Below are positions 13,319 to 29,377 of a stretch of 44,454 nucleotides of DNA, piece by piece (position 1 is the stretch's first letter; each line of letters starts with the position of its first letter). Origin of the DNA: Deltaproteobacteria bacterium HGW-Deltaproteobacteria-1. Lineage in GTDB: Bacteria > Desulfobacterota > Syntrophia > Syntrophales > Smithellaceae. Made by a program: the position numbers and the translations under genes. The notes under the pieces are model-generated. The model saw only the letters and a list, made by a program, of their open reading frames with translations, did no database searches and had not been told where the DNA came from. The stretch spans positions 1 to 44,454 of the forward strand of contig PHBN01000001.1 in assembly GCA_002840635.1 (NCBI GenBank). The letters run 5' to 3'.

Positions 13319-13352
13319 CTGATCGACTATATACAAGTGGAGGAATGCCTAA

Positions 13353-16241
13353 ATGAAACCATTCAATAAAAAGTGGCTGACGCGGATTTCTTCCGAACCT
13401 GCCTCTCAAAAAGGCATCGACCGGCGAACATTTTTAGGTCGGGGAGCCGTTGTCTTGGGCAGTGGCGCCTTGCTGGGGTTCTTACCGCTGTCATGCGTAA
13501 GGGATGCCACGGAAGAGGAAAAGAAGAATTTCCCACGGCCTGATGTAAAGATGGAATACCGCCGAAGCATTTGCACCCACTGCTCGGTGGGATGCGGTGT
13601 AATCGCCGAGCTTCAAAACGGCGTATGGGTAGGCCAGGAACCCGATTATGAATCACCCTTCAATCTTGGTTCTCATTGTGCAAAGGGAGCCTCCGTCCGG
13701 GATCATGGCTTTGGCGTCAAACGTTTAAAATATCCTATGAAGCTCGTGAACGGGTCATGGCAAAGGCTATCCTGGGACCAGGCCATCAATGAGATCGGCG
13801 ACCGCTTTCTGAAGATTCGCAAAGAGTCGGGTCCTGATGCGGTGTTTTTCTGTGGATCCTCTAAAGCGAGCAACGAGGGTTCTTACCTTCAACGAAAATT
13901 CGCCGCGTTTTGGGGCACGAACAATATCGATCACCAGGCACGCATCTGCCATTCGACTACGGTAGCCGGCGTAGCGAGCACTTGGGGCTATGGCGCCATG
14001 ACCAATTCCTACAACGATATGCATAACTCCAAAGTCATGCTGTTTCTCGGCAGCAATGCCGCCGAGGCCCACCCGGTGGCCATGCAGCATGTATTGAGGG
14101 GAAAAGAAAACGGCGCTAAAATTATTGTCGTGGACCCGCGCTTCACGCGCACGGCAGCCCATGCCGATATCTATGCGAGGCTTCGCCCGGGAACAGATAT
14201 TCCTTTTATTTACGGTCTGCTCTGGCATATTTTCAAGAATGGTTGGGAAGACAAGCAATACATCGCCCAGCGGGTCTGGGCGATGGACGATATCCGCAAA
14301 GAGACCAATAATTGGCCACCCGATGTCGTGGAAAATGTGACGGGCATGCCGAAAGAAAAGGTATATGAAATTGCCAAAACCATGGCGGAAAACAAGCCTG
14401 GCACCATCGTTTGGTGTATGGGCGTCACTCAGCACCATATGGGCACTAATACCACAAGGCTTTTCTGCATCCTCCAGCTGGCCCTGGGTAACATTGGCGT
14501 CGCCGGCGGCGGTGCCAACATCTTTCGCGGCCATGACAACGTGCAGGGGGCAACCGATATAGGCCCTAATTCCCATACCCTGCCCGGATATTATGGACTG
14601 GCTGAAGGGGCATGGAAACATTGGGCTCGCGTCTGGGATGTGGATTATGAATGGCTCAAAGCCCGGTTTGATATGACGGGTAAATATGATTCCGGGAACG
14701 GTACCCCGGAATACACCATGTTCATGGAGGGAATCCCTGTTTCACGCTGGATCGACGGTGTCCTGGAGGACAAGAAAAATATCGCCCAAAGGGATAATTT
14801 CCGAGCCGTTTTCTTTCAAGGCCATGCCGCGAACAGTCAGACCCGCGGCGTGGAGATGAAGAAAGCATTAGAGAAACTGGAAATGGTCGTGATCTCCGAT
14901 CCCTATCCGACCCACATGGCGGTGATGAGCGACCGGAAGAATGATACCTATCTTCTGCCGACCTGCACCCAGTTTGAAACCTACGGATCCGTCACCGCCT
15001 CGAATCGTTCACTGCAATGGCGGGAAAAGATTATAGAACCGCTCTACGAAGCATTGCCGGACCACACCATTTTATATAAATTAGCCAAGAAACTGGGCTT
15101 TGAGAAAGAACTGTTCAAACATATCAAGGTGACAAACGACGAACCCCTGATTGAAGACATTCTGAGGGAAGTTAACCGTGGCGCCTGGACCATCGGCTAT
15201 ACAGGACAGACCCCTGAGCGTCTCAAGCTTCAGGCCAAGCATCGGGGCACTTTCAACACAACAACCCTGAAAGCCGAAGGCGGTCCCTGCAACGGCGAAT
15301 ATTACGGCCTGCCCTGGCCCTGCTGGGGGGCGCCGGAAATGAAACATCCCGGGACGCCGATCCTCTATGATCCCAGCAAACCGGTTGCTGAAGGTGGACT
15401 GGTTTTCCGGGCTCGCTTCGGCACGGAACGAAACGGCCAAAACCTGCTGGCCGAAGGGGCCTATTCCCAAGGTTCGGAAATCAAGGACGGTTATCCGGAA
15501 TTCACCGACGTGCTGCTCAAAAAACTGGGCTGGTGGAATGATCTCACGGAGGCGGAAAAAAAGGAAGCTGAAGGGCGCAACTGGAAAACCGATCTCTCCG
15601 GCGGTATCCAGCGGGTAGCCATCAAACACGGCTGCGCACCGTTCGGGAACGCAAAGGCCCGTTGCCAGGTCTGGGAATATCCCGACCCCGTCCCGATTCA
15701 CCGTGAACCCCTTTATACACCAAGGTTCGATCTCGTGAAGAAATATCCCACGTATCAGGACCGTAAGATATTCTGGCGGTTGCCGACCCGGTATAGCTCC
15801 ATTCAATCCGTTAATCACAGCCAGAAATATCCCCTGGTTTTTACCAGTGGCCGATTGGTGGAATATGAGGGGGGCGGTGCGGAGACACGCTCCAATCCCT
15901 GGCTGGCCAAGTTACAGCCGGAAATGTTCGCTGAAATTAACCCGAAAGATGCGAATGATGCGGGCATCGGTAATGAACGATACATGTGGTTGGAGGGTGC
16001 GGAAGGGGGCAGAATCAAGGTAAGGGCCATGGTCACCCCGAGAGTCGGTCCCGGTGTGGTCTGGACACCGTTCCATTTCGGCGGCTGGTTTGAGGGTAAG
16101 GATCTCTATGACCGTTACCCGGAGGGCACCGTGCCCTATGTGCGCGGTGAATCGTGCAATACCGCCACCACCTATGGCTACGATGCCGTTACCCAGATGC
16201 AGGAAACCAAAGCAACGCTCTGCCGTATAACACCTGCGTGA
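13353..16241 (+). CDS. fdhA: formate dehydrogenase alpha subunit (Mo/W-bisPGD, Cys ligand, Tat-exported)
   Basis: DRRTFL Tat motif, CTHCSVGC...C Fe-S site, DHQARICHSTT, RGHDNVQG, C-terminal molybdopterin-binding domain. Confidence 0.96.
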   Translation: MKPFNKKWLTRISSEPASQKGIDRRTFLGRGAVVLGSGALLGFLPLSCVRDATEEEKKNFPRPDVKMEYRRSICTHCSVGCGVIAELQNGVWVGQEPDYESPFNLGSHCAKGASVRDHGFGVKRLKYPMKLVNGSWQRLSWDQAINEIGDRFLKIRKESGPDAVFFCGSSKASNEGSYLQRKFAAFWGTNNIDHQARICHSTTVAGVASTWGYGAMTNSYNDMHNSKVMLFLGSNAAEAHPVAMQHVLRGKENGAKIIVVDPRFTRTAAHADIYARLRPGTDIPFIYGLLWHIFKNGWEDKQYIAQRVWAMDDIRKETNNWPPDVVENVTGMPKEKVYEIAKTMAENKPGTIVWCMGVTQHHMGTNTTRLFCILQLALGNIGVAGGGANIFRGHDNVQGATDIGPNSHTLPGYYGLAEGAWKHWARVWDVDYEWLKARFDMTGKYDSGNGTPEYTMFMEGIPVSRWIDGVLEDKKNIAQRDNFRAVFFQGHAANSQTRGVEMKKALEKLEMVVISDPYPTHMAVMSDRKNDTYLLPTCTQFETYGSVTASNRSLQWREKIIEPLYEALPDHTILYKLAKKLGFEKELFKHIKVTNDEPLIEDILREVNRGAWTIGYTGQTPERLKLQAKHRGTFNTTTLKAEGGPCNGEYYGLPWPCWGAPEMKHPGTPILYDPSKPVAEGGLVFRARFGTERNGQNLLAEGAYSQGSEIKDGYPEFTDVLLKKLGWWNDLTEAEKKEAEGRNWKTDLSGGIQRVAIKHGCAPFGNAKARCQVWEYPDPVPIHREPLYTPRFDLVKKYPTYQDRKIFWRLPTRYSSIQSVNHSQKYPLVFTSGRLVEYEGGGAETRSNPWLAKLQPEMFAEINPKDANDAGIGNERYMWLEGAEGGRIKVRAMVTPRVGPGVVWTPFHFGGWFEGKDLYDRYPEGTVPYVRGESCNTATTYGYDAVTQMQETKATLCRITPA

Positions 16242-16320
16242 CCCGTTTGTCGGGATCTGTGCAAAGCGGAATTATTTTCTAGAAGAAGATAATTTCTGAC
16301 TTACGAAAAGGAGACAAACC

Positions 16321-16929
16321 ATGGCTAGAATGAAATTTCTCTGTGACACCGAACGCTGTATTGAATGCAATGCGTGCGTGACGGCCTGTAACAACGAACA
16401 TGACGTTCCGTGGGGCATTAACCGGCGGCACGTGGTCACCTTGAAGGACGGAGAGAGCGGAGAAAAATCCGTCTCCGTAGCCTGCATGCACTGCACGGAT
16501 GCACCCTGCGCAGCTGTCTGCCCCGTTGATTGCTTTTACACAACGCCGGATGGCATTGTCCTGCACGACAAGGATCTGTGCATCGGGTGCGGCTATTGTT
16601 TCTATGCCTGCCCGTTCGGAGCGCCCCAATTTCCAGAACAAAACTGGTTTGCGGCACGCGGCAAGATGGACAAATGCACGTTCTGCGCCGGCGGACCAGG
16701 TCCGGACAACTCTGTCGAGGAATACAAAAAGTACGGCCGCAACCGGATTGCCGAAGGCAAATTGCCTCTATGCGCGGAAATGTGCGCGACAAAGGCGCTG
16801 CTTGCCGGAGATGGTAATGTCGTGTCTGACATCTATATTCAACGCATTACGAAGCGTGGGGGCCGTCCTCAGACATGGGGATGGGAGACCGCTTATAATT
16901 TCAAATCAGGTAAGGGGGAAAATCCATGA
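16321..16929 (+). CDS. fdhB: formate dehydrogenase beta (Fe-S) subunit, FDH3B type
   Basis: MARMKFLCDTERCIECNACVTAC, CMHCTDAPC, CIGCGYCFYACP, KCTFC. Confidence 0.95.
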   Translation: MARMKFLCDTERCIECNACVTACNNEHDVPWGINRRHVVTLKDGESGEKSVSVACMHCTDAPCAAVCPVDCFYTTPDGIVLHDKDLCIGCGYCFYACPFGAPQFPEQNWFAARGKMDKCTFCAGGPGPDNSVEEYKKYGRNRIAEGKLPLCAEMCATKALLAGDGNVVSDIYIQRITKRGGRPQTWGWETAYNFKSGKGENP

Positions 16930-17114
16930 GATTAAAATATTTGATCCTGGCGGTAATGATGGCACTTGCGGGGATCGCCGGATGTTCCCCAGAACCGCGC
17001 AGTGTGACTATGCATGAACCGGGTGTATACAAGGGCGCTAAAGATCCGTTGCTTGCGTTAAAAAATCAGCAGGAGTTGATCGATCGCTTCAAACTCGTGC
17101 AAACCGACCGCTGA
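16926..17114 (+). CDS. small lipoprotein of the fdh operon
   Basis: Lipobox IAGC; ATGA overlap with fdhB. Confidence 0.75.
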   Translation: MRLKYLILAVMMALAGIAGCSPEPRSVTMHEPGVYKGAKDPLLALKNQQELIDRFKLVQTDR

Positions 17115-17127
17115 ATAAGGAGGCGTT

Positions 17128-18117
17128 ATGACAACGAAAAGCAGAATTCTGCCGATCAGACGTCTTGTGATCTTAGCCGTGCTTCTTTCACTGCTGGGAG
17201 GAGCGATGTCCTTTCAGGTGATCGGCTCTGATCTCGAAAACCCGCGGGCCAACTTCTGGCGTGTGGTCCGGGAGGGCGTTCCGGCCTATACCTCCACGCC
17301 GGATCAGGGGCACACAGTTCTCATTCAGAACAGCGGCGAGAACTGGCGGGAAATTCGCAACGGTCTCATTGCGCGGATTTCTCCGTGGATCATTATACTG
17401 GCTCTGATAGGCATGGCCGCGTTCTATCTGATTGTCGGCCAGGATAAATTGGAAAAACCTCGTTCTGGGGTGATGATCGAGCGTTTTACTTATCGGGAGC
17501 GCTTTCTGCACTGGTCTACAGCCTTGCTGTTTATTGTAATGGCTGTCACGGGGTTGAGTCTTCTTTTAGGACGCTTCGTGCTGATACCGATTTTCGGGCA
17601 TTGGCTTTTTTCAGGATATCTACAGGGTGCAAAAGTATTACACAATTATTGTGGCCCCCTGTTGCTTGCAGGAATTCTTTTGGAATTTGTCCTCTGGGTC
17701 CGTTTCAATATTCCCCGAAAGATTGATCTTCAGTGGTTCAAAAGTATGGGCGGCATGATTGGCAGTGGACCACGGCCACATATCGGGAGAGTCAACGCCG
17801 GCGAAAAGGGATGGTTCTGGCTGATATTTATTTTCGGGAGTGCCGTGGGGATCACCGGTGTACTGCTTGATTTCCCCATTTGGGAACAGACTCGCCTCAC
17901 CATGCAGGTCTCTCATGTCGTACATGCCGTGGTGGCGGTTCTGTTTGTTACCGTCTCCTTTGGACATATTTATATGGGAACTCTTGGCATGGAAGGCGCT
18001 TTTGAAGCCATGTGGTCTGGTTCCGTCGATGCTGTATGGGCAAAGCAGAACCATGATCTCTGGTATCAAGAAAAGATGCGGGAGAGTACTGTAAAACCGG
18101 ATGCGGAAATGTCTTGA
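17128..18117 (+). CDS. fdhC: formate dehydrogenase gamma subunit (cytochrome b)
   Basis: ERFLHW, LHNY, NAGEKGWFW, SFGHIYMGT; TM helices with His ligands. Confidence 0.95.
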   Translation: MTTKSRILPIRRLVILAVLLSLLGGAMSFQVIGSDLENPRANFWRVVREGVPAYTSTPDQGHTVLIQNSGENWREIRNGLIARISPWIIILALIGMAAFYLIVGQDKLEKPRSGVMIERFTYRERFLHWSTALLFIVMAVTGLSLLLGRFVLIPIFGHWLFSGYLQGAKVLHNYCGPLLLAGILLEFVLWVRFNIPRKIDLQWFKSMGGMIGSGPRPHIGRVNAGEKGWFWLIFIFGSAVGITGVLLDFPIWEQTRLTMQVSHVVHAVVAVLFVTVSFGHIYMGTLGMEGAFEAMWSGSVDAVWAKQNHDLWYQEKMRESTVKPDAEMS

Positions 18118-18186
18118 TGTAGAACAGAGTACCTCTGGTATTCCGTTGATAGGCAAACAGAAAAACAAGATTCAACAAAAAGGAGA

Positions 18187-18612
18187 ATGGATATGAAAAA
18201 AATTACAATGTTGTTAGTCATTGTCGGGATGATGGCCTTGGGGATTGGTGTCGCTATGGGTATGCATCATGCAGTTAAAATTCAAGAAAAGAATGGCATA
18301 GGAAAATATCTTACAGATACAGAGGGGAACACCCTGTATACATTTAAAAAAGATTCTCCTGGAAAAAGCGCTTGCACCGGCCCTTGTTTAGAAAAATGGC
18401 CCATCTATTACAGAGAAACAGTTGCTGCCCCCAAAGGGACAAAGGCGTCGGATTTTGGGACGATTACCAGGGAAGACGGTAAGACACAGACAACCTTCAG
18501 GGGCTACCCGCTTTATTACTGGATTAATGACAAAAAGCCCGGCGAAACCACTGGCCAGGGTGTAAAGAATGTATGGTTTGTTATTAATCCGGATAATTTC
18601 CCACTTAAGTAG
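18187..18612 (+). CDS. secreted repeat protein with Y-X4-D motif (COG4315-like)
   Basis: G-TLYTFKKD, SACTGPCLEKWP, GYPLYYWIND...G-TTGQG...WFV. Confidence 0.85.
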   Translation: MDMKKITMLLVIVGMMALGIGVAMGMHHAVKIQEKNGIGKYLTDTEGNTLYTFKKDSPGKSACTGPCLEKWPIYYRETVAAPKGTKASDFGTITREDGKTQTTFRGYPLYYWINDKKPGETTGQGVKNVWFVINPDNFPLK

Positions 18613-18757
18613 TCCTGCACAAAGGACAGGGGATCACCAGGCGGGAATGATAAAAATACGCTATTTAATTCTGGTATATATTTCGGGGTGAAACCAGCAG
18701 CATTTGCTTAAACCAATCTGAAAAAGAGTTTCAACCGAAAACATAAGAGAGGCAGGG

Positions 18758-19477
18758 ATGATGGATTTATGGATTAATACATTTTACAGCATGGTTAACA
18801 GTTTGGGTTTTCCCGATCCCATTCATGCCATCCTGGTGCATATACCGATGGGTCTGACGATAGGCGCCTTTTGCTTTGCCTGGATTTCCGCACTCTCCAG
18901 TTGGAAAAGACTGGCCGTAACGGCGTATCATTGTATTACCCTTTCTCTTGTTTTTCTATTACCCGTAATCATCTTCGGATTTGCGGACTGGCGGCATTTC
19001 TATCTCGGTGCCTGGCTTACGCCAATCAAAATAAAGATGGTTCTGGCCGTTATTCTTTTGTTCCTTTCATTTGTGACATTTCTTTTGGGTTTCAAGGGCA
19101 AGAAAAGTTCAAGGATTACTCTAGCTCTTTATACGTTCTGTCTCATAACTATCATTTGTCTCGGCTGGTATGGTGCAAGGATCGTCTACGGGGAACAAAT
19201 GCCGCCGCATTCAAATAAATATCCAATCGGCGAAAAAATATTTATTGCGAACTGCAACATTTGTCATGCTAATGGAGGCAATAAAATTAGTCCACAAAAT
19301 CCTCTGAGAAGCTCCGACAATTTAAATAACTTAAAGGCCTTCATTTCGCTGATCCGCCATCCTGTAAAACCAATGCCAACATTCACAGCATCCCGGATAT
19401 CCGACCAAGAGGCTAAGGAACTCTATGATTACATTGTGAATGAAGTCAATCGCCCATGGGGAACTGACAATAATTAA
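18758..19477 (+). CDS. DUF2231-like membrane domain fused to a monoheme cytochrome c
   Basis: HAILVHIPMG plus four TM helices, then CNICHANGGN...MPTF. Confidence 0.82.
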   Translation: MMDLWINTFYSMVNSLGFPDPIHAILVHIPMGLTIGAFCFAWISALSSWKRLAVTAYHCITLSLVFLLPVIIFGFADWRHFYLGAWLTPIKIKMVLAVILLFLSFVTFLLGFKGKKSSRITLALYTFCLITIICLGWYGARIVYGEQMPPHSNKYPIGEKIFIANCNICHANGGNKISPQNPLRSSDNLNNLKAFISLIRHPVKPMPTFTASRISDQEAKELYDYIVNEVNRPWGTDNN

Positions 19478-19495
19478 CTTAAAGAGGTGTAGAAT

Positions 19496-19783
19496 ATGAA
19501 TCAGCAACAAATGACCAGAGAGACGATAGAATTTGACAACCCATTGCCGGACACCGCCTTTAGTACAATCAACACGATCTGGGATCAATCGGCAAAAATA
19601 TTTTCTGCTATCATTGGTAATGCCAATTTATTACCCGATGATGGGGGAAATGAAACAGACAATGGGATTCCAGCTTATAAAAAAAAACGTGAAGCTCCCC
19701 GTTTGAGCAATAAAGAACTGGCTCGGTTGAAAAAGATTAAGCTTACCTGCCTCCAGGAAGAGCATGCGCTGTGGCTGAAATAA
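19496..19783 (+). CDS. hypothetical protein, resembles a deltaproteobacterial phasin-like family (diverged)
   Basis: MNQQQMTRETIEF...DTAF...DQ...LPDDG...AYKK pattern recalled from Syntrophales helical proteins; RBS GAGGT. Confidence 0.4.
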   Translation: MNQQQMTRETIEFDNPLPDTAFSTINTIWDQSAKIFSAIIGNANLLPDDGGNETDNGIPAYKKKREAPRLSNKELARLKKIKLTCLQEEHALWLK

Positions 19784-19869
19784 CGTTAATGTTTCACCGT
19801 CTATGAAAGCCCCTCGGTGAAAATGCCTTACCCCGAAGCATCGTAAGAAAAGATGAGAAAAGTAATACA

Positions 19870-20286
19870 ATGAATCAGTCGGAAATAATTGAAGATAAAA
19901 AATATACAGGCGTTCGTAATCGCCGTGTTCACATGGCAAATGAAAGAACATTTCTTGCGTGGATAAGAACAAGCATCGGGCTAATGGCATTTGGTTTTGT
20001 TGTTGAAAAGTTTGCGCTGTTCATAAAACAAATGTCATTGATTTTGGGAAACGCTAATATTGCGAATGCTTTGCCTCCTCCTCATGGATATTCGGCAATC
20101 GTTGGAATATTCCTTGTCTGTCTTGGCACGTTGATTGGCCTGCTTGCATTTGTCAGGTACAGGAAAGTGGAGAGACAAATAGACGATGATACTTATCAAC
20201 CGTCATCGGTACTTGACCTGCTGCTCACCCTATCAGTCCTTGCAGTTGGAATCTTCCTTGTTGTGTATTTGATTCATAGTACTTAA
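19870..20286 (+). CDS. YidH/DUF202 membrane protein
   Basis: HMANERTFLAWIRTSIGLMAFGF. Confidence 0.92.
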   Translation: MNQSEIIEDKKYTGVRNRRVHMANERTFLAWIRTSIGLMAFGFVVEKFALFIKQMSLILGNANIANALPPPHGYSAIVGIFLVCLGTLIGLLAFVRYRKVERQIDDDTYQPSSVLDLLLTLSVLAVGIFLVVYLIHST

Positions 20287-20434
20287 TGCAGAGACAGTTC
20301 GCAATGGAAAAAAAGCAAAAACCCGAAGAACACCATGAATGAAGGATGAGCATGACCGCAAGCATTCTGCAACTTCAGAAATCTGCGGTATCGTAAAGGT
20401 TAAGTTACACGAAGCTTTGCGAAAGGAAAAAAAG

Positions 20435-20650
20435 ATGAAAAGATTGATGATTCCATTAGCGGTTTTGTTTGCTTTTAGCACTTCAGCATTGGCCCAGATG
20501 GGCAACAATCAAGGTAACAACATGATGGGTGGTGATTCGTGGGGTTCGAGGTGGGGAATGGGATACGGCTTCGGTTTCGGATGGATATTGTTGATTATTG
20601 TCGCTATTCTCGTTATTTTTGGCATCGTTTACATGATAAAACGAAAATAA
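20435..20650 (+). CDS. small exported Gly/Met-rich protein with C-terminal membrane anchor
   Basis: MKRLMIPLAVLFAFSTSALA signal, GNNMMGG..WGMGYGFGFGW, TM helix, basic tail. Confidence 0.72.
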   Translation: MKRLMIPLAVLFAFSTSALAQMGNNQGNNMMGGDSWGSRWGMGYGFGFGWILLIIVAILVIFGIVYMIKRK

Positions 20651-20676
20651 AAAATCAGTAAAGGGGAGGTTATTCA

Positions 20677-21189
20677 ATGAAAAAATCAATAGCGGCTTCA
20701 ATTTTGGCAGTCGTCGTGGGAGTAGTTCTTATTTCCTGGGATGCAGATACTCAAATGGGATATGGACCAGGCTATGGTAGAGGACAGGGTATGATGGGCG
20801 GCGGAACGGGGTGGGGAGCGGGATCCTTTCGTTCTAACGGAGAACGCATCTATTTCACCTCTACGAGCGAGCGCGGTACGGTAATCACTTACGCGGGCGG
20901 TCCGGCATCGAGTGGTTGGATGATGATGGGAGGACAACTGGCATGTGTTTCATGTCATGGTCCGGATGGGCGGGGTGGCAGACACTCCATGGGAATGATG
21001 CAGGTGATGGATGCCAAAGATATACGCTGGAAAGTTTTGCAGCCCGAATTCGATGCGGAAAAATTTCGACTGGCGGTTGTAAAAGGTCAGGACCCCGATG
21101 GCACCCAGTTAAAACCGGACATGCCGCGATGGAATATCGGCAAAGCTGATTTGGCCGACCTGATTGCTTTCCTCAAAACGCTGCCATGA
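20677..21189 (+). CDS. periplasmic monoheme cytochrome c with Gly/Met-rich segments
   Basis: ACVSCHGPDGRGG, distal MPRW; GGAGG RBS. Confidence 0.88.
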   Translation: MKKSIAASILAVVVGVVLISWDADTQMGYGPGYGRGQGMMGGGTGWGAGSFRSNGERIYFTSTSERGTVITYAGGPASSGWMMMGGQLACVSCHGPDGRGGRHSMGMMQVMDAKDIRWKVLQPEFDAEKFRLAVVKGQDPDGTQLKPDMPRWNIGKADLADLIAFLKTLP

Positions 21190-21334
21190 GTCTATAATTC
21201 GCGTTCGGCAAGCAACCGACATGCAGCGGGTAATTGTTTTAATGTTCATAGGGCTGGAATTATCCTAAGTGACTATTCTTGTGTTCCGGATCCTGCCGAT
21301 TAGCCGGGTCGAAAAAATCAAGGAGGCGTATCTC

Positions 21335-21730
21335 ATGAAAAGAATTCTCGGATGTGCTGCAATTGTATTATTTCTGGGAGCCACTCCTTTGTTGGCCCAG
21401 AGTATCGGGGACAATGAATATGAGAAAGGGAAAACACTTTACAAGAACAAATGCCAGTTCTGTCATGGGATGAGGGGCGACGGCAAAGGACCAGCGGCTC
21501 AATCCCTCCTGATGCACCCTGAAGATTTCACCACTCCCGAGTTTTGGCAGGATGATATTGAAAAAAAAATAACCGTGGAGCAGAAAATCGAAAATACTAT
21601 CAAAAAAGGCAAGGAGATGATGCCGGCATTTAACCTGGAATCCGATGAGATAAAGGCCATCATCTTGCATATGTCTAATACCTTCAAAAAAAAATCTCAA
21701 AGCAATAACTTAGGGAGGGATGAAAAATGA
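21335..21730 (+). CDS. periplasmic monoheme cytochrome c
   Basis: RBS AAGGAGG, signal peptide, CQFCHGMRGDGKGPAA, MMPAF; stop overlaps the next start (ATGA). Confidence 0.9.
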   Translation: MKRILGCAAIVLFLGATPLLAQSIGDNEYEKGKTLYKNKCQFCHGMRGDGKGPAAQSLLMHPEDFTTPEFWQDDIEKKITVEQKIENTIKKGKEMMPAFNLESDEIKAIILHMSNTFKKKSQSNNLGRDEK

Positions 21731-23148
21731 TTGGTGAAAAACCAAGAAAAGTATTCTTTCTTCTCATAATATTCTTTCTTCTCATAGTATTCGCGTTATT
21801 GCAGATTTTGCCGTTAAACACCGCCCAGGCAGTACCGAGTTTTCAGCGGCAAACAGGGATATCGTGTAATCAATGTCATACTGTATTCCCGGAATTGACG
21901 CCCTTCGGACGAATCTTCAAACTTGGCGGTTATGTCATGAGCAAGACAGGGAAGTCCTATGAATTTCCTCCGCCGGTTGCGGGCATGGTGCAGGCATCTT
22001 ATACAAACGCCAGGGGACTGACTTCCGGGGTTGCTCCTTTTGATTACAACAACCGGGAAACCGATGGACTCAATCTGCCGCAGCAGTTAAGCTTATTTTA
22101 CGGAGGTCGAATCTACGATAAGATAGGCGCCTTTATACAGGGCACCTACGATGGCGCCACCAACAAAATCTTCTTGGACATGACAGATATACGTTATGCA
22201 AACAACACCATGGTGTGGGGTAAAAATCTAATTTACGGGTTTACGCTCAATAATAGTCCAAGCGTACAAGATGTCTGGAACACCACTCCTGCTTGGAGGT
22301 TTCCTTTTGCTTCTTCCAGCGTTGCCCCAACGCCTGCCGCAGGGGCGATCATCGATGGGGCTTTAGACCAGCAAGTAGGCGGTATCGGTGCCTATGCCTT
22401 TTGGAACAATTTGATTTATCTGGGAGTGGCTGTTTACCGCTCGGCCGACGAAGGTATTGCCTTGCCATTGAGCGCGGGCACCTTTACAGAACAGATCGTG
22501 GACGGTACAGCCCCATACTGGCGTCTGGCATTGGAACACCGGTGGAAAAATCACTTCTTTACCATAGGCACTTACGGGATGCAGACAGATATCTTTCCCT
22601 CAGGGAACAGCAGTGGGCCGTCAGATCGCTTTACAGATATCGCCTTTGACGCACAATATCAATACATGGGGACGATTGAACCGGAAGACATACCGGGTGT
22701 GGACGACGCACATAAGGCTAAAGCGGGAAAGTATATGATAACGGCGCACGCCACCTGGATTCGCGAGAACCAGGACTGGAAGGCAAGCTTTCCCCTTGGG
22801 AATACGGCAAACCGCTCTGACTTACTGACAACATTCAGAATGAATCTGAATTATTACTATCGGAGCCCGCTTGGCGATATTGGTGGATCAACGAGTTATT
22901 TTTCTACGACCGGCGAAGCAGATTCGCTGCTTTATGCTTCTAATCCAGTTGACGGAAGCAGAACGGGCATTCCTGACAACGATGGTTTTATTCTTGAGGC
23001 GAGTTATCTTCCGTGGGAAAAGACCAAGATTTCCATTCAGTATACAATTTATAACAAGTTCAACGGCGCTTCTTCGAACTATGATGGATTCGGCCGGAAT
23101 GCTTCCGATAACAACACGCTCTATGTTGTCATCTGGCAAATGTTTTAA
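21727..23148 (+). CDS. cyc2: Cyc2-like outer-membrane cytochrome c-porin fusion
   Basis: After the AQA cleavage site: VPSFQRQTGISCNQCHTVFPELTPFGRIFKLGGY; aromatic-rich beta-strand body; terminal Phe. Confidence 0.8.
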   Translation: MIGEKPRKVFFLLIIFFLLIVFALLQILPLNTAQAVPSFQRQTGISCNQCHTVFPELTPFGRIFKLGGYVMSKTGKSYEFPPPVAGMVQASYTNARGLTSGVAPFDYNNRETDGLNLPQQLSLFYGGRIYDKIGAFIQGTYDGATNKIFLDMTDIRYANNTMVWGKNLIYGFTLNNSPSVQDVWNTTPAWRFPFASSSVAPTPAAGAIIDGALDQQVGGIGAYAFWNNLIYLGVAVYRSADEGIALPLSAGTFTEQIVDGTAPYWRLALEHRWKNHFFTIGTYGMQTDIFPSGNSSGPSDRFTDIAFDAQYQYMGTIEPEDIPGVDDAHKAKAGKYMITAHATWIRENQDWKASFPLGNTANRSDLLTTFRMNLNYYYRSPLGDIGGSTSYFSTTGEADSLLYASNPVDGSRTGIPDNDGFILEASYLPWEKTKISIQYTIYNKFNGASSNYDGFGRNASDNNTLYVVIWQMF

Positions 23149-23174
23149 TTACTGCCTTTCATGAAATGTTGATT

Positions 23175-23190
23175 TGGCATGGTTATTGAC
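23175..23190 (+). promoter_or_regulatory. possible sigma-54-like promoter upstream of copB
   Basis: TGGCATGGTTATTGAC: good -24 element, but -12 reads GA rather than GC. Confidence 0.3.
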
Positions 23191-23238
23191 AACGTATCAA
23201 GAAAAATTCAGTTTTGGTACTTGCGCGAGGAAAAAATA

Positions 23239-25362
23239 ATGGAACATCATCACCATTTAGAACACCCGCCAGAAGCAATGAATCACACGATGCACGAAGG
23301 GCACGACATGAAAGGGTCTAAAGGTGGCAACCACACCGATCACCATGCCCACATGGCGGCGGACTTCCGGAAACGGTTTTGGATTTCGCTTATTTTGACT
23401 CTGCCGATTCTCATCCTCTCGCCGATGCTTCAAATGCTGGTGGGCCTGAGGGAAACCATTCATTTCCCCGGCGACATCTATGTCTTATTCGTTTTTTCTT
23501 CCGCGGTATTCTGGTATGGCGGCTGGCCGTTTCTGAAAGGCCTGTTCGAGGAGCTCAAATCCCGTCAGCCCGGGATGATGACGCTGGTTGCCGTCGCCAT
23601 TACCACGGCCTATGTTTACAGCAGCGCCGTCGTGTTCGGCCTGGCCGGCAAAATCTTCTTCTGGGAATTGGCCACGCTTGTAGACATCATGCTGCTGGGG
23701 CACTGGATCGAGATGAGGTCGGTGATGGGCGCTTCTAAAGCCCTGGAAGAACTGGCCAAACTCATGCCCTCCGACGCCCACAAACTCATGCCCGACGGCA
23801 GCGTAAAGGATGTGCCGCTCGGTGAACTGGCGGTGGATGATAAAGTCCTGATCAAACCGGGTGAGAAAATTCCCGCAGACGGTGTCATTGTGGAAGGCGA
23901 GAGCTCGGTTAATGAAGCGATGCTCACCGGGGAATCAACCCCTGTTGCTAAAAAAACCGGTGGCAAGGTCATCGGCGGCGCAATTAACGGTGAAGGTTCA
24001 CTGACAATCGAGGTCAAAGGCACCGGGAAGGATTCGTTTCTGGCGCAGGTCATCGACCTTGTCAAACAGGCCCAGGAAAGCAAATCGAAAACCCAAAAAT
24101 TTGCCGACACCGCCGCGATGTGGCTCACCATCGTGGCGCTCAGTTGCGGTGCCGTCACCTTCCTGATCTGGTTGGTTGCCATGAGCAAGGAATTTTCCTT
24201 TGCCATCGAGCGAGCCGTGACCGTAATGGTCATCACCTGTCCGCATGCGCTGGGTCTTGCTATACCCTTGGTTGTGGCCGTTTCCACAGCCCTGGCCGCG
24301 AAAAACGGCCTGCTCATTCGTAATCGCGTTTCTTTCGAAGGCGCGCGAAAACTGCAAGCCATCATTTTCGACAAGACCGGCACGCTCACTGAAGGCCGTT
24401 TTGGCGTGAGCGACACACTCGTACTATCGCAGGACATCGACGAAGAAACGCTGCGCCAATACGCGGCCTCTGTAGATGCAAATTCCGAACATCCCATCGC
24501 CACGGCCATCGCCGCTTCTTCGGAAAAGAAGCTGCCCGTTGAAAACTTTAAAAGCATCCCGGGCAAAGGCGCCGAAGGCACAGTCGAGAGTAGAGAAATT
24601 AAGGTGGTCAGCCCCGGCTACCTCAGCGAACAGAAAATACATCTTGCCGACCCGCGCATCGAACCACTGCAAGCACAAGGCAAAACGGTTGTGTTTGTCC
24701 TCGTGGACGGGAAGTTGAAAGGAGCCATTGCCTTGGCCGATATCGTCCGGCCCGAGGCGAAGCAAGCCATCGATGCTCTTAAGGCGTTGAATATTCGCTG
24801 CATGATGCTCACCGGCGATAACAAGGCGACAGCCAAATGGGTATCAGATCAGGTCGGATTGGACGAATACTTCGCCGAAGTCCTGCCCGGGGATAAAGCC
24901 GCCAAAGTGAAAGAGGTCCAATCCAGGGGTATCCTGGTGGCCATGACCGGAGACGGTGTGAACGATGCCCCGGCGCTGGCGCAGGCTGATGTGGGCATCG
25001 CCATCGGAGCGGGTTCCGATGTAGCGGTGGAAACCGCTGACGTGATTCTGGTGCGGAGTAATCCGCTGGATGTTGTGGCCATCGTGCAGCTGTCACGCGC
25101 CACTTACCGCAAGATGATTCAAAATCTTTTCTGGGCCACAGGCTACAATGCCTTCGCCATTCCACTGGCCGCCGGAGCGCTTTATGCTTGGGGCGTACTA
25201 CTTAGTCCCGCCATGGGCGCGGTATTGATGTCCGCAAGCACGGTGATTGTGGCCATCAATGCACGACTGCTGAAACTGAAGACAGAGCCAAACCTAAAGA
25301 CAAAGCACAATGACGATCGGCAAAGAAAGATTAAGTTAGATGAATATGCCAAACCGGCTTGA
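23239..25362 (+). CDS. copB: copper-exporting P1B-3 type ATPase
   Basis: His-rich N-terminus, TGES, CPH, DKTGT, SEHP, GDGVNDAP, YN and MSAST. Confidence 0.93.
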   Translation: MEHHHHLEHPPEAMNHTMHEGHDMKGSKGGNHTDHHAHMAADFRKRFWISLILTLPILILSPMLQMLVGLRETIHFPGDIYVLFVFSSAVFWYGGWPFLKGLFEELKSRQPGMMTLVAVAITTAYVYSSAVVFGLAGKIFFWELATLVDIMLLGHWIEMRSVMGASKALEELAKLMPSDAHKLMPDGSVKDVPLGELAVDDKVLIKPGEKIPADGVIVEGESSVNEAMLTGESTPVAKKTGGKVIGGAINGEGSLTIEVKGTGKDSFLAQVIDLVKQAQESKSKTQKFADTAAMWLTIVALSCGAVTFLIWLVAMSKEFSFAIERAVTVMVITCPHALGLAIPLVVAVSTALAAKNGLLIRNRVSFEGARKLQAIIFDKTGTLTEGRFGVSDTLVLSQDIDEETLRQYAASVDANSEHPIATAIAASSEKKLPVENFKSIPGKGAEGTVESREIKVVSPGYLSEQKIHLADPRIEPLQAQGKTVVFVLVDGKLKGAIALADIVRPEAKQAIDALKALNIRCMMLTGDNKATAKWVSDQVGLDEYFAEVLPGDKAAKVKEVQSRGILVAMTGDGVNDAPALAQADVGIAIGAGSDVAVETADVILVRSNPLDVVAIVQLSRATYRKMIQNLFWATGYNAFAIPLAAGALYAWGVLLSPAMGAVLMSASTVIVAINARLLKLKTEPNLKTKHNDDRQRKIKLDEYAKPA

Positions 25363-26237
25363 ACAAAGGACTCGCAGGGTCTGGGAGCTACTTAGGCTCA
25401 CCGTCAAAAAGATTTTGCTAATTGACGTGGCACATTGGGCGGGAGCATTCGCCTTTAATGCGTTCTTCTCGCTGTTTCCTTTGATCGTCCCCTTCGTTAC
25501 TATTGCCTCTGTTTATATTGACCGGGAACAGGCCGGGATGAGGTCATTGCTTACATGGAAAGATTTGTTCCAATTAGTGGTGAAATGCAGAGTTACATTT
25601 TCGACACCATCGCCGGTGTGATCAAAGTGCGCAGGCAGGCGGGTGCGGTCTCGCTTCTCATCCTGGTATGGGTCGTGCTCCAGGCCTTCACCACGCTCAT
25701 CAGCGCGACCAACCGCACCTGGGGCGTTCGAGCGCACAATTGGTGGCGGGCGCTGTCCTCCTGGGCATGGTGGCGCCGGTGATGATGAAAATGGCAAAGG
25801 GTTGGCTCTTTCAAGTAAATGATCTCCGTTCCTGGATCGGTGCCCCGGGGAGCTTTGTCGTCCCCTTACTGGTCGCGTTCCTTAGTCTGAGCCTGTTTTA
25901 CAAACTGGCACCGCGCAGGCCCACGCGGTTTGCCGAAGTGTGGGCCACAGCTCTGTGTGTTACGGTTGTTTTACATGTAGCCGATACTCTATTCGTGATC
26001 TACCTTAAGAACTTCGCCATGTTAAACGCGATCTATGGAACGTTCGGCGGGATCATGGCAATGCTGCTGTGGATTTACTTTTCCGGGTGCATTTTCATCT
26101 TCGGCGCCTGCCTTTGCGCCGCTCAGGCCGAAGGGCATTTTGCGCCGGAGAAACGATTAGGGCGCACTGAAAAATGGAGGATTGAAACATGCACAAACCC
26201 GTTGATCAAGAAAAGGTCATCGACAATCACGGCATGA
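25340..26237 (+). pseudogene. YihY/BrkB family membrane protein, frameshifted
   Basis: Segments in three successive ORFs: AFNAFFSLFPL / LISATNRTW / LFYKLAP...IYGTFGGIMAMLLWIYFS. Confidence 0.82.
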
Positions 26238-26275
26238 CTTGCCTGAAATCCGGAACTGGAAATGGAGTCTGACAA

Positions 26276-27607
26276 ATGAATAAATTCAAGCAACTCTGGA
26301 GCAGACTACGGTCTAGCTTTTGGTTTACCCCTTCGCTGATTGTTTTGCTCAGCGCTGCCTTTGCGGTAGCGATGATCGAAGCGGACTCCGCCGGAAGCGA
26401 CCAATGGTTGGCCAAGTGGCCGCGCCTGTTTGGGGCCGGTGCGGAAGGCGCGCGCGGAATGATGTCCACAATTGCCGGTTCGATGATGACCGTGGTGGGC
26501 GTCACGTTCTCCATGATCCTGGTCGTGCTGGCGCTGGCTTCGAGCCAATACACCTCACGCATTCTGAGGAATTTCATGCGCAGCCGCGTCACGCAGGTCG
26601 TGCTCGGAATCTTCGCCGGCATTTTTACGTACTGCCTGATCATATTGCGCACCATTCGCGGCGGCGACGAGAGCGCATTTGTTCCAAACCTGGCGGTGTT
26701 CTTCGGCTTCGTGCTGGCGCTCGGAGGTGTCGGCGCCCTCATGTTCTTCATTCATCACATCGCCTCTTCGATTCAGGCTTCCAGCATTATCTCCTCGGTT
26801 GCTGAAGAAACCATTGCCGTCATTGACCGGCTGTTTCCTGAAAAACTTGGCCAGGAACCGGGTGAAGACGATGATGACCAGACGCTAAACCCTATATCCG
26901 GGCGGAATTGGCGTGCCGTCCCGGCCCCGCAAAGCGGTTATGTCCAGAGCGTGAATAACGCAGCGCTCCTACGCTTAGCGCAGGACAGGAAAACCATCGT
27001 ATTGATGGAGCATGGCATCGGTGATTTCGTTGTCCGGAACACCCCACTGGCCTCACTCGCTCTTGAAGATCCGCCGGATCAAGAAACGATTGCCTTCCTG
27101 CAGGATACTTTTAGCATCAGCAGCTACCGCACTGTGGAACAGGACGCTGCCTTCGGCATCAGGCAGATCGTGGATGTGGCATTGAAAGCCCTCTCCCCCG
27201 GCGTCAACGATACCACGACAGCCGTAATGTGTGTGGATTATCTGACAGCGATTATGGCACAGCTGGCCCCCCGGCAAATCCCTTCAGCGCACCGCTATGA
27301 AGAAGGGAAACTGCGAGTGATCGCCAAAGGCCCGAGCTTTGAAAGCTTGTTGGCCGAATCATTCAATCAAATTCGAAGCAGCGCCATTGGCAATGTCGCC
27401 ATCATATTGCAGATGCTGGGCGCGCTTCAAACCATCGCCAGTATGACAGACAGCCCAAGCCGTCGTCGGGCGCTTCGTGAACAATTGCAATGGATCGCCG
27501 AACTGGCTGAGCGCACCCTCGTGTCTCCATTCGACCGGGCAAGGGTTGAGGGCCAACTGGAGCTAGTGCGTAAAGCACTCGAAGATGAAAGAGAGTTTTT
27601 AACGTAA
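26276..27607 (+). CDS. DUF2254 family membrane protein
   Basis: SFWFTP, LASSQYTSRILRNF, QDAAFGIRQIVDVALKALSPGVNDTTTA. Confidence 0.9.
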   Translation: MNKFKQLWSRLRSSFWFTPSLIVLLSAAFAVAMIEADSAGSDQWLAKWPRLFGAGAEGARGMMSTIAGSMMTVVGVTFSMILVVLALASSQYTSRILRNFMRSRVTQVVLGIFAGIFTYCLIILRTIRGGDESAFVPNLAVFFGFVLALGGVGALMFFIHHIASSIQASSIISSVAEETIAVIDRLFPEKLGQEPGEDDDDQTLNPISGRNWRAVPAPQSGYVQSVNNAALLRLAQDRKTIVLMEHGIGDFVVRNTPLASLALEDPPDQETIAFLQDTFSISSYRTVEQDAAFGIRQIVDVALKALSPGVNDTTTAVMCVDYLTAIMAQLAPRQIPSAHRYEEGKLRVIAKGPSFESLLAESFNQIRSSAIGNVAIILQMLGALQTIASMTDSPSRRRALREQLQWIAELAERTLVSPFDRARVEGQLELVRKALEDEREFLT

Positions 27608-27656
27608 GCCGTTGTCAAACAATAACTGTAACATTGTAACATCGTGATCGGCATAA

Positions 27657-27707
27657 GGGGCCGTAACGAAATGGCTAGAAATGTAACAGTTATTTCTTAA
27701 CGGCCCC
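27657..27707. mobile_element. 51-bp MITE or internally deleted IS with TAA target duplication
   Basis: TAA|GGGGCCGTAACGAAAT...ATTTCTTAACGGCCCC|TAA; 14/16 terminal inverted repeat. Confidence 0.6.
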
Positions 27708-27760
27708 TAACTGAATCGCGAAACAGGAAGAACGAAAATGAATGGAGATAACATCTGGTA

Positions 27761-29377
27761 ATGGAGACGGAAACCATCTTAATTTTGCTGTTTGTCGTGG
27801 CCACAACCGTGGCGATTGCCGTGCAACGTCTGGCCATTCCTTACACAGTCGCTCTGGTCGTCACCGGACTCCTGCTGGGGATGCTGAATATCTTTGAAGC
27901 GCCCCACCTGACCAAGGCGCTGCTGTTCGGTGTCTTTCTGCCGGGGCTGCTCTTTGAGGCCGCATTTCATATCGAGTTTAAACAATTCTGGCGAAACCGC
28001 CTCATCATTTCTTCGCTGGCCCTGCCGGGCGTTGTGGCGGCCATCGTGCTGACTGCCGTAATTTTAACCCCGGTCGCCGACGCGCTGCATTTCGTGCAGG
28101 GTTTTACCTGGAAACATGCTCTTGTGTTTGGCGCACTCATCGCCGCGACTGATCCCATAGCCGTCGTCGCCATCTTTAAGAATCTGGGCGTCCCAAAGCG
28201 GCTGTCCGTATTGCTCGATGGCGAGAGCCTGCTCAATGACGGCACCGCCATCGTTTTCTTCACGCTCAGCTTGGCGCTCGTAACAGGGACAGCGGCAACG
28301 GCCGGCGGGTTGGCTTTTGATTTTATCAGAATCGTCGGCATCGGTGCATTGATTGGAACGGGTGTCGGACTGGCCGTTTCGCAGGTCATCAGACAGGTGG
28401 ATGACCCGATGATCGAGATCACACTGACGACGATTGCAGCGTATGGTTCCTTCCTGGCTGCTGAACATTTTCATTACTCCGGCGTGATTGCCACCGTGGC
28501 GGCGGGTATGCTCTGCGGAAACTATGGCGCCCGTGTCGGCATGTCGCCATCAACCCGGATCGCCGTGGAGACGTTTTGGAAATACATCGCTTTTGCTCTC
28601 AACTCCATCATTTTCCTGCTGATTGGTCTCGAAGTACACTTCCAGGCATTGCTGGCCTCCTGGAAGGCGATCCTGGTTGCCTATCTCGTGGTGACGGGCG
28701 GCAGGGCGCTGGTCATCTTCGGCGTATCTTCGCTGCTCGGCCGGACGCGTGAAAGAATTCCCTGGGCGTGGAGCGTGATCCTGACGTGGGGCGGGTTGCG
28801 CGGCGGGCTGCCCATGGTACTGGTCCTCAGCCTCCCAAAGGATTTTCCGCATCGGGAATTGCTGGTCTCGATGACCTTCGGGGTGGTCATTCTTTCAATA
28901 CTTGTCCATGGGTTGACGATGTCTCCCCTGTTGAGATGGCTGGGCATTGTGCGCGGACACGAGGAACTCGCCGCATATGAGTTGACGCGCGGGGGGTTAC
29001 AGGCAACCCATGCCGCACTGAGCGAGATTGACCAAATGTCACACGTCCACTTCACCCAGCCGGACGTACTCTCTGATCTGCGCCGCGAATATGAACAGAA
29101 GGTCGAGCGCGATAGTGCTGCGCTCGATGAGTTGCATATCGATAACCAACAACTTCATGCCGAGGAATTACAACGCACTCGACGACACCTGTTGTTGGTG
29201 GAAAAAAACACGGTAATCGATGCCTTTCACCGTGGACTTCTCAGTCAGGCTGTCCAGGAGCAGTTACTCGCGGATATCGATATCCGGTTGCTGCGTCTCG
29301 AAACAGCAAAAACCGATTCGTCCGCCGAAGAAGAACCGTCCTTCGGACATACCGATGAGCATGCCCCTGTGGGATAG
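27761..29377 (+). CDS. CPA1 family Na+/H+ antiporter (NhaP-like)
   Basis: FLPGLLFEAA, AATDPIAV, GESLLNDG, WGGLRG. Confidence 0.94.
   Translation: METETILILLFVVATTVAIAVQRLAIPYTVALVVTGLLLGMLNIFEAPHLTKALLFGVFLPGLLFEAAFHIEFKQFWRNRLIISSLALPGVVAAIVLTAVILTPVADALHFVQGFTWKHALVFGALIAATDPIAVVAIFKNLGVPKRLSVLLDGESLLNDGTAIVFFTLSLALVTGTAATAGGLAFDFIRIVGIGALIGTGVGLAVSQVIRQVDDPMIEITLTTIAAYGSFLAAEHFHYSGVIATVAAGMLCGNYGARVGMSPSTRIAVETFWKYIAFALNSIIFLLIGLEVHFQALLASWKAILVAYLVVTGGRALVIFGVSSLLGRTRERIPWAWSVILTWGGLRGGLPMVLVLSLPKDFPHRELLVSMTFGVVILSILVHGLTMSPLLRWLGIVRGHEELAAYELTRGGLQATHAALSEIDQMSHVHFTQPDVLSDLRREYEQKVERDSAALDELHIDNQQLHAEELQRTRRHLLLVEKNTVIDAFHRGLLSQAVQEQLLADIDIRLLRLETAKTDSSAEEEPSFGHTDEHAPVG

Follow-up and report, generated by a model that had tools for sequence, protein, structure and literature searches.

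We analyzed a window of 44,454 nucleotides (positions 1 to 44,454 of contig PHBN01000001.1, assembly GCA_002840635.1) from Deltaproteobacteria bacterium HGW-Deltaproteobacteria-1, a member of the Smithellaceae within the Syntrophales, in which a gene for an exported monoheme cytochrome c runs into a gene for a cytochrome fused to an outer-membrane porin (Table 1). The N terminus of the porin has a basic n-region and a hydrophobic, signal-like stretch ending in NTAQA, followed on sequence reading by VPSFQRQTGISCNQCHTVFPELTPFGRIFKLGGY; the mature protein starts after AQA as VPSFQRQTGISCNQCHTVFPEL, contains one copy of CxxCH (CNQCH, residues 47-51), and ends in VVIWQMF. The stop codon of the cytochrome gene (TGA, 21728-21730) overlaps the porin start codon (ATG, 21727) as ATGA, and a GGGAGGG box lies 7 nt upstream of the porin start. 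The cytochrome open reading frame (ORF) is listed from a GTG at 21269; the ATG at 21335, which has an AAGGAGG box before it, is the preferred start, and the 131-residue product matches PF13442 (4.4e-11) and PF00034 (5.2e-9). An earlier interpretation made from the DNA letters, here called the sequence-only reading, had described a Cyc2-like cytochrome-porin at 21335..23148, and the elements on which it relied (the mature N terminus, the single CxxCH, the terminal Phe, and the ATGA overlap with an upstream exported cytochrome c) are all present there. Scanning 18000-25600 for promoters and terminators gave 12 promoter-like and 4 terminator-like sites, no excess over the means of 10.1 and 9.0 in shuffled sequence, so operon boundaries cannot be called from these sites.

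Table 1. Features of the cytochrome-porin locus and its surroundings, in window coordinates
Feature	Coordinates	Strand	Remarks
Cyc2-family fused monoheme cytochrome-porin	21727..23148	+	473 aa, signal peptide, 16-strand barrel, C-terminal Phe
Cytochrome region of the porin		+	AVPSFQRQT-GIS-CNQCH-TVF-PEL; motif reading of the 21727..23148 product
Exported class-I monoheme cytochrome c, 131 aa	21335..21730	+	CQFCH, MMPAF; ATGA-coupled; predicted periplasmic docking partner
Cassette common to several phyla	21316-23172		cytochrome c + porin
Segment without counterpart in 46 same-genus genomes	20653..23238		two cytochromes c + porin
Exported cytochrome c, 170 aa	20677..21189	+	Met clusters on both sides of the heme motif (GWMMMGG..CVSCH, HSMGMMQVM)
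Small Gly/Met-rich protein, 103 aa	20339..20650	+	C-terminal membrane helix
CopB-type (P1B) copper ATPase	23239..25362	+	MEHHHH... His-rich N terminus, CPH membrane motif; native to the genus
DUF2231 four-helix membrane domain fused to c6/OmcF-like cytochrome c	18758..19477	+	

Of 8000 candidates scored against the porin, more than 5284 are homologues at E ≤ 0.001, and the protein also matches 3116 cluster representatives at 50% identity; the ORF is therefore real and not a chance frame. Every source-given name among the 120 homologues listed is "hypothetical protein," and sequence searches of Pfam, NCBIfam, and the PDB with the 473-residue protein returned no match, while in the ESM Atlas it lies near "cytochrome C family" clusters that have no Pfam assignment, Porin_O_P appearing in some of the near clusters. 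The AlphaFold2 model (108-sequence alignment) has a mean predicted local distance difference test (pLDDT) score of 92.0 and a predicted template modeling (pTM) score of 0.88, and consists of a short helical N-terminal region at the heme motif followed by 16 β-strands (DSSP), with residues 6-27 as a single helix outside the fold; the stretch of ~400 residues that the sequence-only reading had called β-strand-like is thus a 16-strand barrel in the model. In a Foldseek comparison with the PDB, this model has 226 matches (E ≤ 0.001); general porins of 16 strands (chitoporin, OmpF, OmpC, OmpT) head the list, and OprP (2o4v) ranks 39th (E 2e-6).

Known fused cytochrome-porins of the Cyc2 type include Cyc2 of Acidithiobacillus ferrooxidans, Cyc2PV-1 of Mariprofundus ferrooxydans, and Cyt572 of Leptospirillum (PMC7029218, PMC8406198). 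As described in PMC8406198, Cyc2 comprises 365 residues or more, with a signal peptide, a single CXXCH, an OprO/P-like porin of 16 strands, a motif AXPXFAR[Q/K][T/Y] upstream of the CXXCH that is termed unique to Cyc2, and PXL four residues downstream; the screen in that study uses the pattern PXFAR[Q/K][T/Y], and Ralstonia and Burkholderia are among the genera that gave homologues. The window protein has a signal peptide, as judged from the sequence and from the helix outside the modeled fold, and its length (473 residues) and strand number (16) agree with the description. Its single CxxCH is shared by 250 of the 270 retrieved homologues, each with exactly one copy, and its PEL (CNQCH-TVF-PEL) follows a pattern present in 214 of those 250. 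The upstream motif reads AVPSFQRQT, which agrees with the consensus at 6 of the 7 fixed positions and has Q where the consensus has A, so the strict pattern PxFAR[QK][TY], which 159 of the 270 homologues match literally, fails on the window copy. Across homologues, A occupies this position in 200 cases, S in 13, E in 12, K in 8, and Q in 1; the three nearest homologues have K or E there, and those that are 76-81% identical (P0004-P0018) have AVPSFARQT exactly. The porin is therefore assigned to the Cyc2 family by homology, with 81% identity over 100% of its length to P0004, which carries the canonical motif, and 42-47% identity to homologues from Ralstonia and other Burkholderiaceae. On sequence grounds it is very probably a Cyc2-family cytochrome-porin that varies at one motif residue. 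The Cyc2 architecture proposed in the sequence-only reading stands in each part (signal peptide, single heme motif, Cyc2-type cytochrome consensus, 16-strand porin, and terminal Phe), and the protein is a further member of a known family.

To place the upstream gene, we compared it across loci graded by porin identity to the window. A cytochrome c gene lies within 400 nt upstream of the porin at every locus above 65% identity (26/26), at 36 of 51 loci between 50 and 65%, and at 1 of 29 below 50%. Complex prediction was performed with the mature porin (36-473) and the mature 131-residue cytochrome (24-131) in separate alignments, and gave an interface score (ipSAE) of 0.68 (median of three runs) versus 0.00 for the best of three controls; the docking mark is passed by 116 of 157 solved complexes and by 2 of 215 mismatched pairs, counts that hold only approximately here because the alignments were our own. 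At least 82% of contacts recur between runs, the partner pLDDT is at least 80, and since the PDB holds no sequence relative, it is unlikely that the pass reflects memory of a similar complex. The predicted interface comprises residues 43-45, 49, and 58-75 of the porin, about the heme motif, and residues 35-59 and 95-105 of the partner, which contain its heme motif and Met-ligand loop. It also takes in short turns of the barrel (160-169, 225-228, 272-275, and 314-316) that, by strand parity and order in the porin model, would face the periplasm. The two heme regions are thereby predicted to dock at the periplasmic rim, a topologically sensible arrangement that carries the confidence of the model. 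Based on the conserved gene order and the predicted docking, both of which bear out the coupling to an exported cytochrome c in the sequence-only reading, the 131-residue cytochrome is probably the direct periplasmic partner of the porin.

Most of the window, flanks included, is common to same-genus genomes at 75-94% nucleotide identity. Searches of 24 same-genus and 16 same-order genomes did not recover the porin itself, and DNA searches with 20653-23250 found no counterpart in 46 same-genus genomes beyond pieces of at most 54 nt. The copper ATPase region (23239-25306) is again 85-89% identical to same-genus genomes at the nucleotide level, and homology to two sister genomes restarts exactly at 23239, the ATG of MEHHHH..., for which reason we moved the ATPase start from 23179 to 23239; in one sister genome (G049), copB lies 84 nt after a DUF3141 gene. 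The block 21316-23172, ~1.85 kb that contain the cytochrome c and porin genes, recurs at eight loci from several phyla with 76-81% nucleotide identity, and the titles of the metagenome-assembled genomes (MAGs) that share it name Nitrospirota, Desulfuromonadales, Aminicenantes, and others.

The wider distribution follows the same pattern. Profile searches of 400 genomes of the phylum gave matches in 31; of these, only three are close relatives over their full length, and one of the three is interrupted by a TGA. One genome of the phylum has a near homologue of the porin gene in two pieces, the first of which contains a TGA (G435:C16:83953-85426). One-genome-per-species scanning yielded 351 porin relatives, and the best 80 of these are almost all MAGs whose titles name Nitrospirota/Thermodesulfovibrionales, Desulfuromonadales, "delta proteobacterium," Aminicenantes, Bacteroidales, Acidobacteria, Syntrophales, Geobacteraceae, and other groups, with relatives from Methylococcaceae, Gemmatimonadota, and Burkholderiaceae next, at 42-47% identity. 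The chromosome of one Thermodesulfovibrionales MAG carries three separate copies of the cytochrome-porin gene (L021, L035, L056). The profile for the locus scan was built from 25 closer rows, and a quick maximum-likelihood tree was computed on 76 rows, leaving out locus ORFs shorter than 380 residues or without CxxCH as well as a Ralstonia plasmid locus (L004). In this tree, 15 short-branched rows, the window among them, form a clade that draws on at least six phyla (support 99) and is nested in a 58-row clade of Nitrospirota and Thermodesulfobacteriota (support 94), and the porin copy of a Syntrophales MAG is placed elsewhere, apart from the window clade.

Vertical inheritance is rejected on the grounds that the gene was not found in the same-genus and same-order genomes searched, together with the tree placement. 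The region is covered by contigs that another assembler built from four runs, and single contigs from two of these runs, which may be the source sample, span 20509-28000 with zero differences and even depth; mis-binning or chimeric assembly is ruled out by these junction-spanning contigs and by flanks that match sister genomes. The pattern in the sequences is that of a recent cross-phylum transfer of a two-gene cassette, which the host acquired horizontally. Neither this spread nor the absence of the cassette from sister genomes was part of the sequence-only reading.

The genome of the host, a groundwater bacterium, amounts to 3.30 Mb in 558 contigs (83.2% complete, 4.9% contaminated) and has a single copy of the porin gene; its rpoB fragment is 76% identical to a MAG titled Syntrophales versus 61-66% for four other MAGs. 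Searches of this 83%-complete genome found no match to the COX1-family oxidase (PF00115), for which the control matched in 9 of 14 named genomes, no NarG above the cut-off, and no RuBisCO. They did recover cytochrome bd subunit I, cytochrome c maturation genes (PF01578, two loci), and only two PF13442 cytochromes, both on the contig of the window. With cytochrome bd as the only oxidase found, the gene content agrees with the "apparent anaerobe" of the sequence-only reading, whose remark that the window holds no terminal oxidase or rusticyanin is also correct for the 28 ORFs scanned with Pfam.

These data bear on the classical role of Cyc2, energy-conserving Fe(II) oxidation as in Acidithiobacillus, Mariprofundus, and Gallionellaceae. 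The Acidithiobacillus rus operon has the order cyc2-cyc1-cup-coxBACD-rus (PMC10654088), and the window resembles it in placing an outer-membrane Cyc2-type gene beside a periplasmic cytochrome c gene on one strand, so that family membership and the cyc2-cyc1-like pairing both speak for iron lithotrophy. The window differs in several respects: the porin gene comes second, after that of the cytochrome c, and is followed by a copper exporter, the partner is monoheme and not a diheme c4 protein (Cyc1), and the 28 window ORFs, which mark the extent of the cupredoxin search within the genome, include no cupredoxin and no cox genes. Nor did the 83%-complete host genome yield the heme-copper oxidase of a rus-type pathway, NarG above its cut-off, or RuBisCO, and the gene was not found in 46 sister genomes and is rare in the phylum sample (three close matches of full length among 400 genomes). 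We therefore consider growth on Fe(II) most improbable. The sequence-only reading had proposed Fe(II) oxidation or electron exchange with minerals, metals, or partner cells, for which we find no support; a single heme in the porin is argued to reach dissolved species only (PMC8406198).

To examine what accompanies the cassette, we tallied neighbors over 159 loci (79 from genomes and 80 from metagenomes), 153 of which include the porin 3' end and 130 at least 900 nt beyond it, looking for a CopB-type ATPase, a proton-pump-type P-ATPase, and the DUF2231-cytochrome c fusion. Directly 3' of the porin, the 39 loci above 65% identity have a CopB-type ATPase in 11 cases, a proton-pump-type P-ATPase in 2, and none of the three in 26. 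At 50-65% identity, the DUF2231-cytochrome c takes this place at 20 of 61 loci and the proton-pump-type enzyme at 1, with none of the three at 40, and below 50% the fusion follows the porin at 1 of 30 loci and none of the three at 29. Every one of the 11 CopB pumps has a His-rich N terminus and a CPH motif, as does that of the window, and the spacer between porin and pump is 39-87 nt in 10 metagenome loci and ~90 nt in the window (it is not resolved in L009). Two metagenome contigs (L089 and L090) repeat the window order of small Gly/Met-rich protein, 170-residue cytochrome c, 131-residue cytochrome c, porin, and CopB, and homologues of the Gly/Met-rich protein lie upstream of the cytochromes in these and in L163, L037, and L005. 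In an Aminicenantes MAG, the cytochrome-porin pair sits between a CusB-type RND efflux set and CopB. The host has only two CopA/B-type loci in 3.3 Mb, which puts chance adjacency at ~1%. The sequence-only reading did not include either of the recurrent neighbors, the CopB-type ATPase or the DUF2231-cytochrome c.

The pump of the window scores 630.6 bits against TIGR01511 (cut-off 397), contains ITCPHALG and the N-terminal MEHHHHLEH...HTDHHAH, and has no HMA domain reported by Pfam; we take these CPH and His-rich features to define the CopB, or P1B-3, subgroup and apply that name to the ATPase at 23239-25362. Compared with CopB-type ATPases, nothing in the pump is unusual; what is unusual is the cytochrome pair encoded before it. 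The same contig encodes a CueP-family periplasmic copper-binding protein at 3450-4025 (NF038094, 131 bits), a gene common to some sister genomes at 79-85% nucleotide identity. Elsewhere in the window, at 29411-31936, lies a type-IIIA "plasma-membrane proton-efflux" P-type ATPase (TIGR01647, 1070.9 bits), which is 81-85% identical in protein sequence across phyla (L016, L091, L021); at L091 and L016, this enzyme follows the porin with the same 40-nt spacer that elsewhere precedes CopB.

Upstream of the pair, the window and the three metagenome relatives nearest to it encode the 170-residue cytochrome c. The family of this cytochrome counts more than 692 proteins, often named "cytochrome c oxidase subunit 2" by one source, and has conserved Met clusters (GWMMMGG..C..CH and H.MGMMQVM): at least five Met precede the CxxCH in 72 of 119 members, and the 25 residues after it hold a median of four. 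To judge by sequence, these clusters may form a metal-binding site beside the heme; we take them to resemble Cu(I)-binding Met motifs, as in the chemistry of CueO, PcoA, and CusF, a likeness that is suggestive only.

Such neighbors invite a copper-specific explanation, by which the locus would be an oxygen-independent counterpart of periplasmic cuprous oxidases and their outer-membrane partners (CueO, PcoA/PcoB). CopB would pump Cu+ to the periplasm, the Met-rich cytochrome c would bind and oxidize it, and either the electrons would leave by way of the 131-residue cytochrome and the heme-porin or copper itself would pass through the pore. The CopB adjacency at 11 of 39 close loci with its short spacers, the repeated five-gene order, the Aminicenantes arrangement with its RND set before the pair, the Met clusters conserved beside the heme motif, and the CueP gene on the same contig are all consistent with this proposal. 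On the other hand, outside the window only the three closest loci have the Met-rich cytochrome along with the pair, its clusters are no more than suggestive of a copper site, 26 of the 39 close loci have no ATPase after the porin, the more distant clade has the DUF2231-cytochrome c there instead, and hitch-hiking in an island could explain the linkage; we regard a dedicated copper system as doubtful. The comparison with PcoA/PcoB (CopA/CopB in Pseudomonas) and CueO is by analogy only: in both settings a redox protein keeps company with copper-export genes, as does an outer-membrane barrel in the Pco/Cop pair, but the window has no multicopper oxidase and no sequence relation to these proteins, its redox center is a heme, joined in one protein to a barrel of 16 strands, and operation without oxygen would be possible. 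PcoAB has been treated as a porin-multicopper oxidase analogue of porin-cytochrome systems (He et al. 2017, PMC5566968), and the passages concerned tie PcoAB to iron and not Cyc2 to copper.

The DUF2231-cytochrome c is a candidate for the inner-membrane end of an electron-transfer chain, because the same fusion lies directly 3' of the porin in the more distant clade. Its 33 retrieved homologues have H23, H28, D77, W78, K93, the heme motif, and M206 invariant, and by topology reasoning the H23/H28/D77-W78 group probably faces the periplasm. In Foldseek, the cytochrome half alone gave matches; it resembles cytochrome c6 and Geobacter OmcF. For the DUF2231 half, VIA-align returned generic four-helix bundles with Z up to 12.6, among them CcmF (11.5), CcmC (9.9), cytochrome b561 (9.7), and bd oxidase (9.6), all of which is below the meaningful level for helical bundles, so that heme-b binding by this half would be a guess from the model.

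The OmcF-like domain is one of several features that would fit electron flow in the reductive direction, with a fermenting or syntrophic anaerobe disposing of electrons outward to soluble acceptors such as Fe(III) chelates or humic quinones. The host belongs to a syntrophic order by its rpoB, relatives of the porin occur in Geobacteraceae and Desulfuromonadales MAGs, and 3-10 kb upstream lie the genes for a periplasmic formate dehydrogenase of the FDH3 type, which includes a cytochrome b subunit. The partner cytochromes, however, are class-I, c6/c551-like monoheme proteins, which are usually high-potential, unlike the multiheme chains of known metal reducers. Furthermore, the cassette is missing from 46 sister genomes of the same lifestyle, and no quinol-dehydrogenase-type multiheme partner lies nearby in the window. 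Outward disposal is thus unlikely, and somewhat more so than a copper-specific function. The formate-dehydrogenase-type operon itself (10547-18117) encodes a polyferredoxin, a TorD-like chaperone, a 962-residue molybdopterin subunit, an FDH3-beta equivalog (335.8 bits, cut-off 240), and an FdhI-like cytochrome b. It is found in some sister genomes only, at 75-80% nucleotide identity, within the same variable block from DUF3141 to copB. We considered the porin and this operon as one unit and rejected the idea, since the operon occurs in sister genomes that have no cassette. Direct copies of a ~205-nt non-coding stretch, 86% identical, lie at 9893-10097 and 32187-32392, and the stretch also occurs beside the formate-dehydrogenase cluster in sister genomes.

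The variable gene content around the cassette raises the further question of whether these are passenger genes, which travel in a mobile stress island and do little or nothing for this host. The island is a mosaic, the cassette has spread across phyla, and the BrkB/YihY-family gene just downstream of the copper pump is broken into two pieces in different frames (25340-25621 and 25668-26237), a sign of decay within the island. The split is probably a real frameshift, because independent contigs show the identical sequence; an intact 294-residue BrkB homologue in L010 aligns over both pieces. Yet all three cytochrome genes are undamaged, their ribosome-binding sites are strong, the ATGA coupling is kept, the pair is conserved with its partner down to ~50% identity, and the host has the genes for cytochrome c maturation, which together make mere carriage improbable, though marginally less so than iron lithotrophy. 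Farther downstream, between DUF2254 and Na+/H+ exchanger genes, a repeat of ~106 nt (27605-27710) has many copies in same-genus genomes at 84-91% identity; it looks like a miniature mobile or repetitive extragenic palindromic (REP)-like element, and contigs of other assemblies break or branch there.

Building on the observed architecture, family homology, cassette transfer, conserved neighbors, and host gene content, we infer a substrate, a direction of electron flow, and a physiological role for the pair. We propose that one c-type heme at the periplasmic mouth of the 16-strand porin, together with the 131-residue cytochrome c, would form an electron gate across the outer membrane, now placed directly upstream of a native CopB-type exporter in a mosaic island of stress and ion-homeostasis genes. 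Most likely, the porin heme would take electrons from dissolved reduced metal ions that enter the pore, Fe2+ by family precedent and possibly Cu+, and pass them to the 131-residue cytochrome c, from which they would move on to a cytochrome in the membrane, for example the DUF2231-cytochrome c. The gain for the cell would be protection from metal stress under anoxic, metal-rich conditions and not growth on iron. We give this one-heme gate for metal stress, as opposed to iron lithotrophy, roughly an even chance of being correct, much of which rests on the family assignment and the partner.

Several observations weigh against this proposal. The Q in the upstream motif departs from the Cyc2 consensus, and the ~83% completeness of the host limits what its missing genes can tell. 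No electron sink was identified for the oxidative direction in this genome, which has no high-potential terminal reductase. Same-genus genomes carry the same copB and lack the cassette. At 26 of the 39 close loci, none of the three neighbors follows the porin, and the first two ORFs 3' of the porin at 15 of these loci are assorted stress-island genes (20 ORFs compared with Pfam: DUF4396, DUF302, DUF202, BrkB, a methyltransferase, sugar-phosphate enzymes, and phosphoketolase), and the CopB linkage may accordingly reflect transfer of the island as a block and not function. The metagenome contigs, moreover, possibly derive from related samples, so the locus counts are not independent.

Compared with known systems, the proposed gate has the closest likeness to Cyc2: a signal peptide, a CxxCH near the mature N terminus with AxPxF.RQT before it and PxL after it, more than 365 residues, a predicted 16-strand OprO/P-like porin, and an adjoining gene for a periplasmic cytochrome c. 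It differs in the Q-for-A substitution, in a host that is a strict anaerobe with no heme-copper oxidase found, in a 131-residue monoheme partner in place of diheme Cyc1, and in neighbors that are a CopB-type ATPase or a DUF2231-cytochrome c and not oxidase, rusticyanin, or bc genes. Like MtrAB, MtoAB, PioAB, and the Pcc systems of Geobacter, it would use a cytochrome in a barrel to move electrons across the outer membrane. Those porin-multiheme conduits, however, thread a separate deca- or multiheme protein through a barrel of ~26 strands (barrel sizes from PMC10654088), whereas here a single heme is fused to 16 strands. A multiheme conduit of the Mtr/Mto/Pio/Pcc kind is ruled out by the one fused heme motif and the strand number.

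Many Cyc2 homologues, especially those in organisms for which iron oxidation is not known, are of unverified function as reported in PMC8406198 and PMC5566968. In the text of the articles searched, we found neither an anaerobe-dominated clade that moves as a cytochrome-c-plus-porin cassette nor a recurrent link of a Cyc2-type cassette to CopB-type pumps or DUF2231-cytochrome c, and full-text searches joining Cyc2 with DUF2231 found nothing. The locus offers a first functional lead for DUF2231, and its compact set of two to four genes is testable in Escherichia coli.

Cyc2 serves as a marker gene for microbial iron oxidation in metagenomes, and the clade described here occurs almost wholly in anaerobes, crosses phyla as a two-gene cassette, and lies repeatedly beside a copper exporter or a DUF2231-cytochrome protein. 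If this clade serves metal defense or some other electron exchange, counting all Cyc2 hits would overstate iron oxidation in settings such as anoxic soils, peat, and groundwater. It is conceivable, although we think it doubtful, that strict anaerobes use a heme-based, oxygen-independent replacement for the multicopper cuprous oxidases. If so, part of an "iron oxidase" family would in fact be copper-detoxifying, which would account for the high frequency of Cyc2 homologues among organisms that do not oxidize iron.

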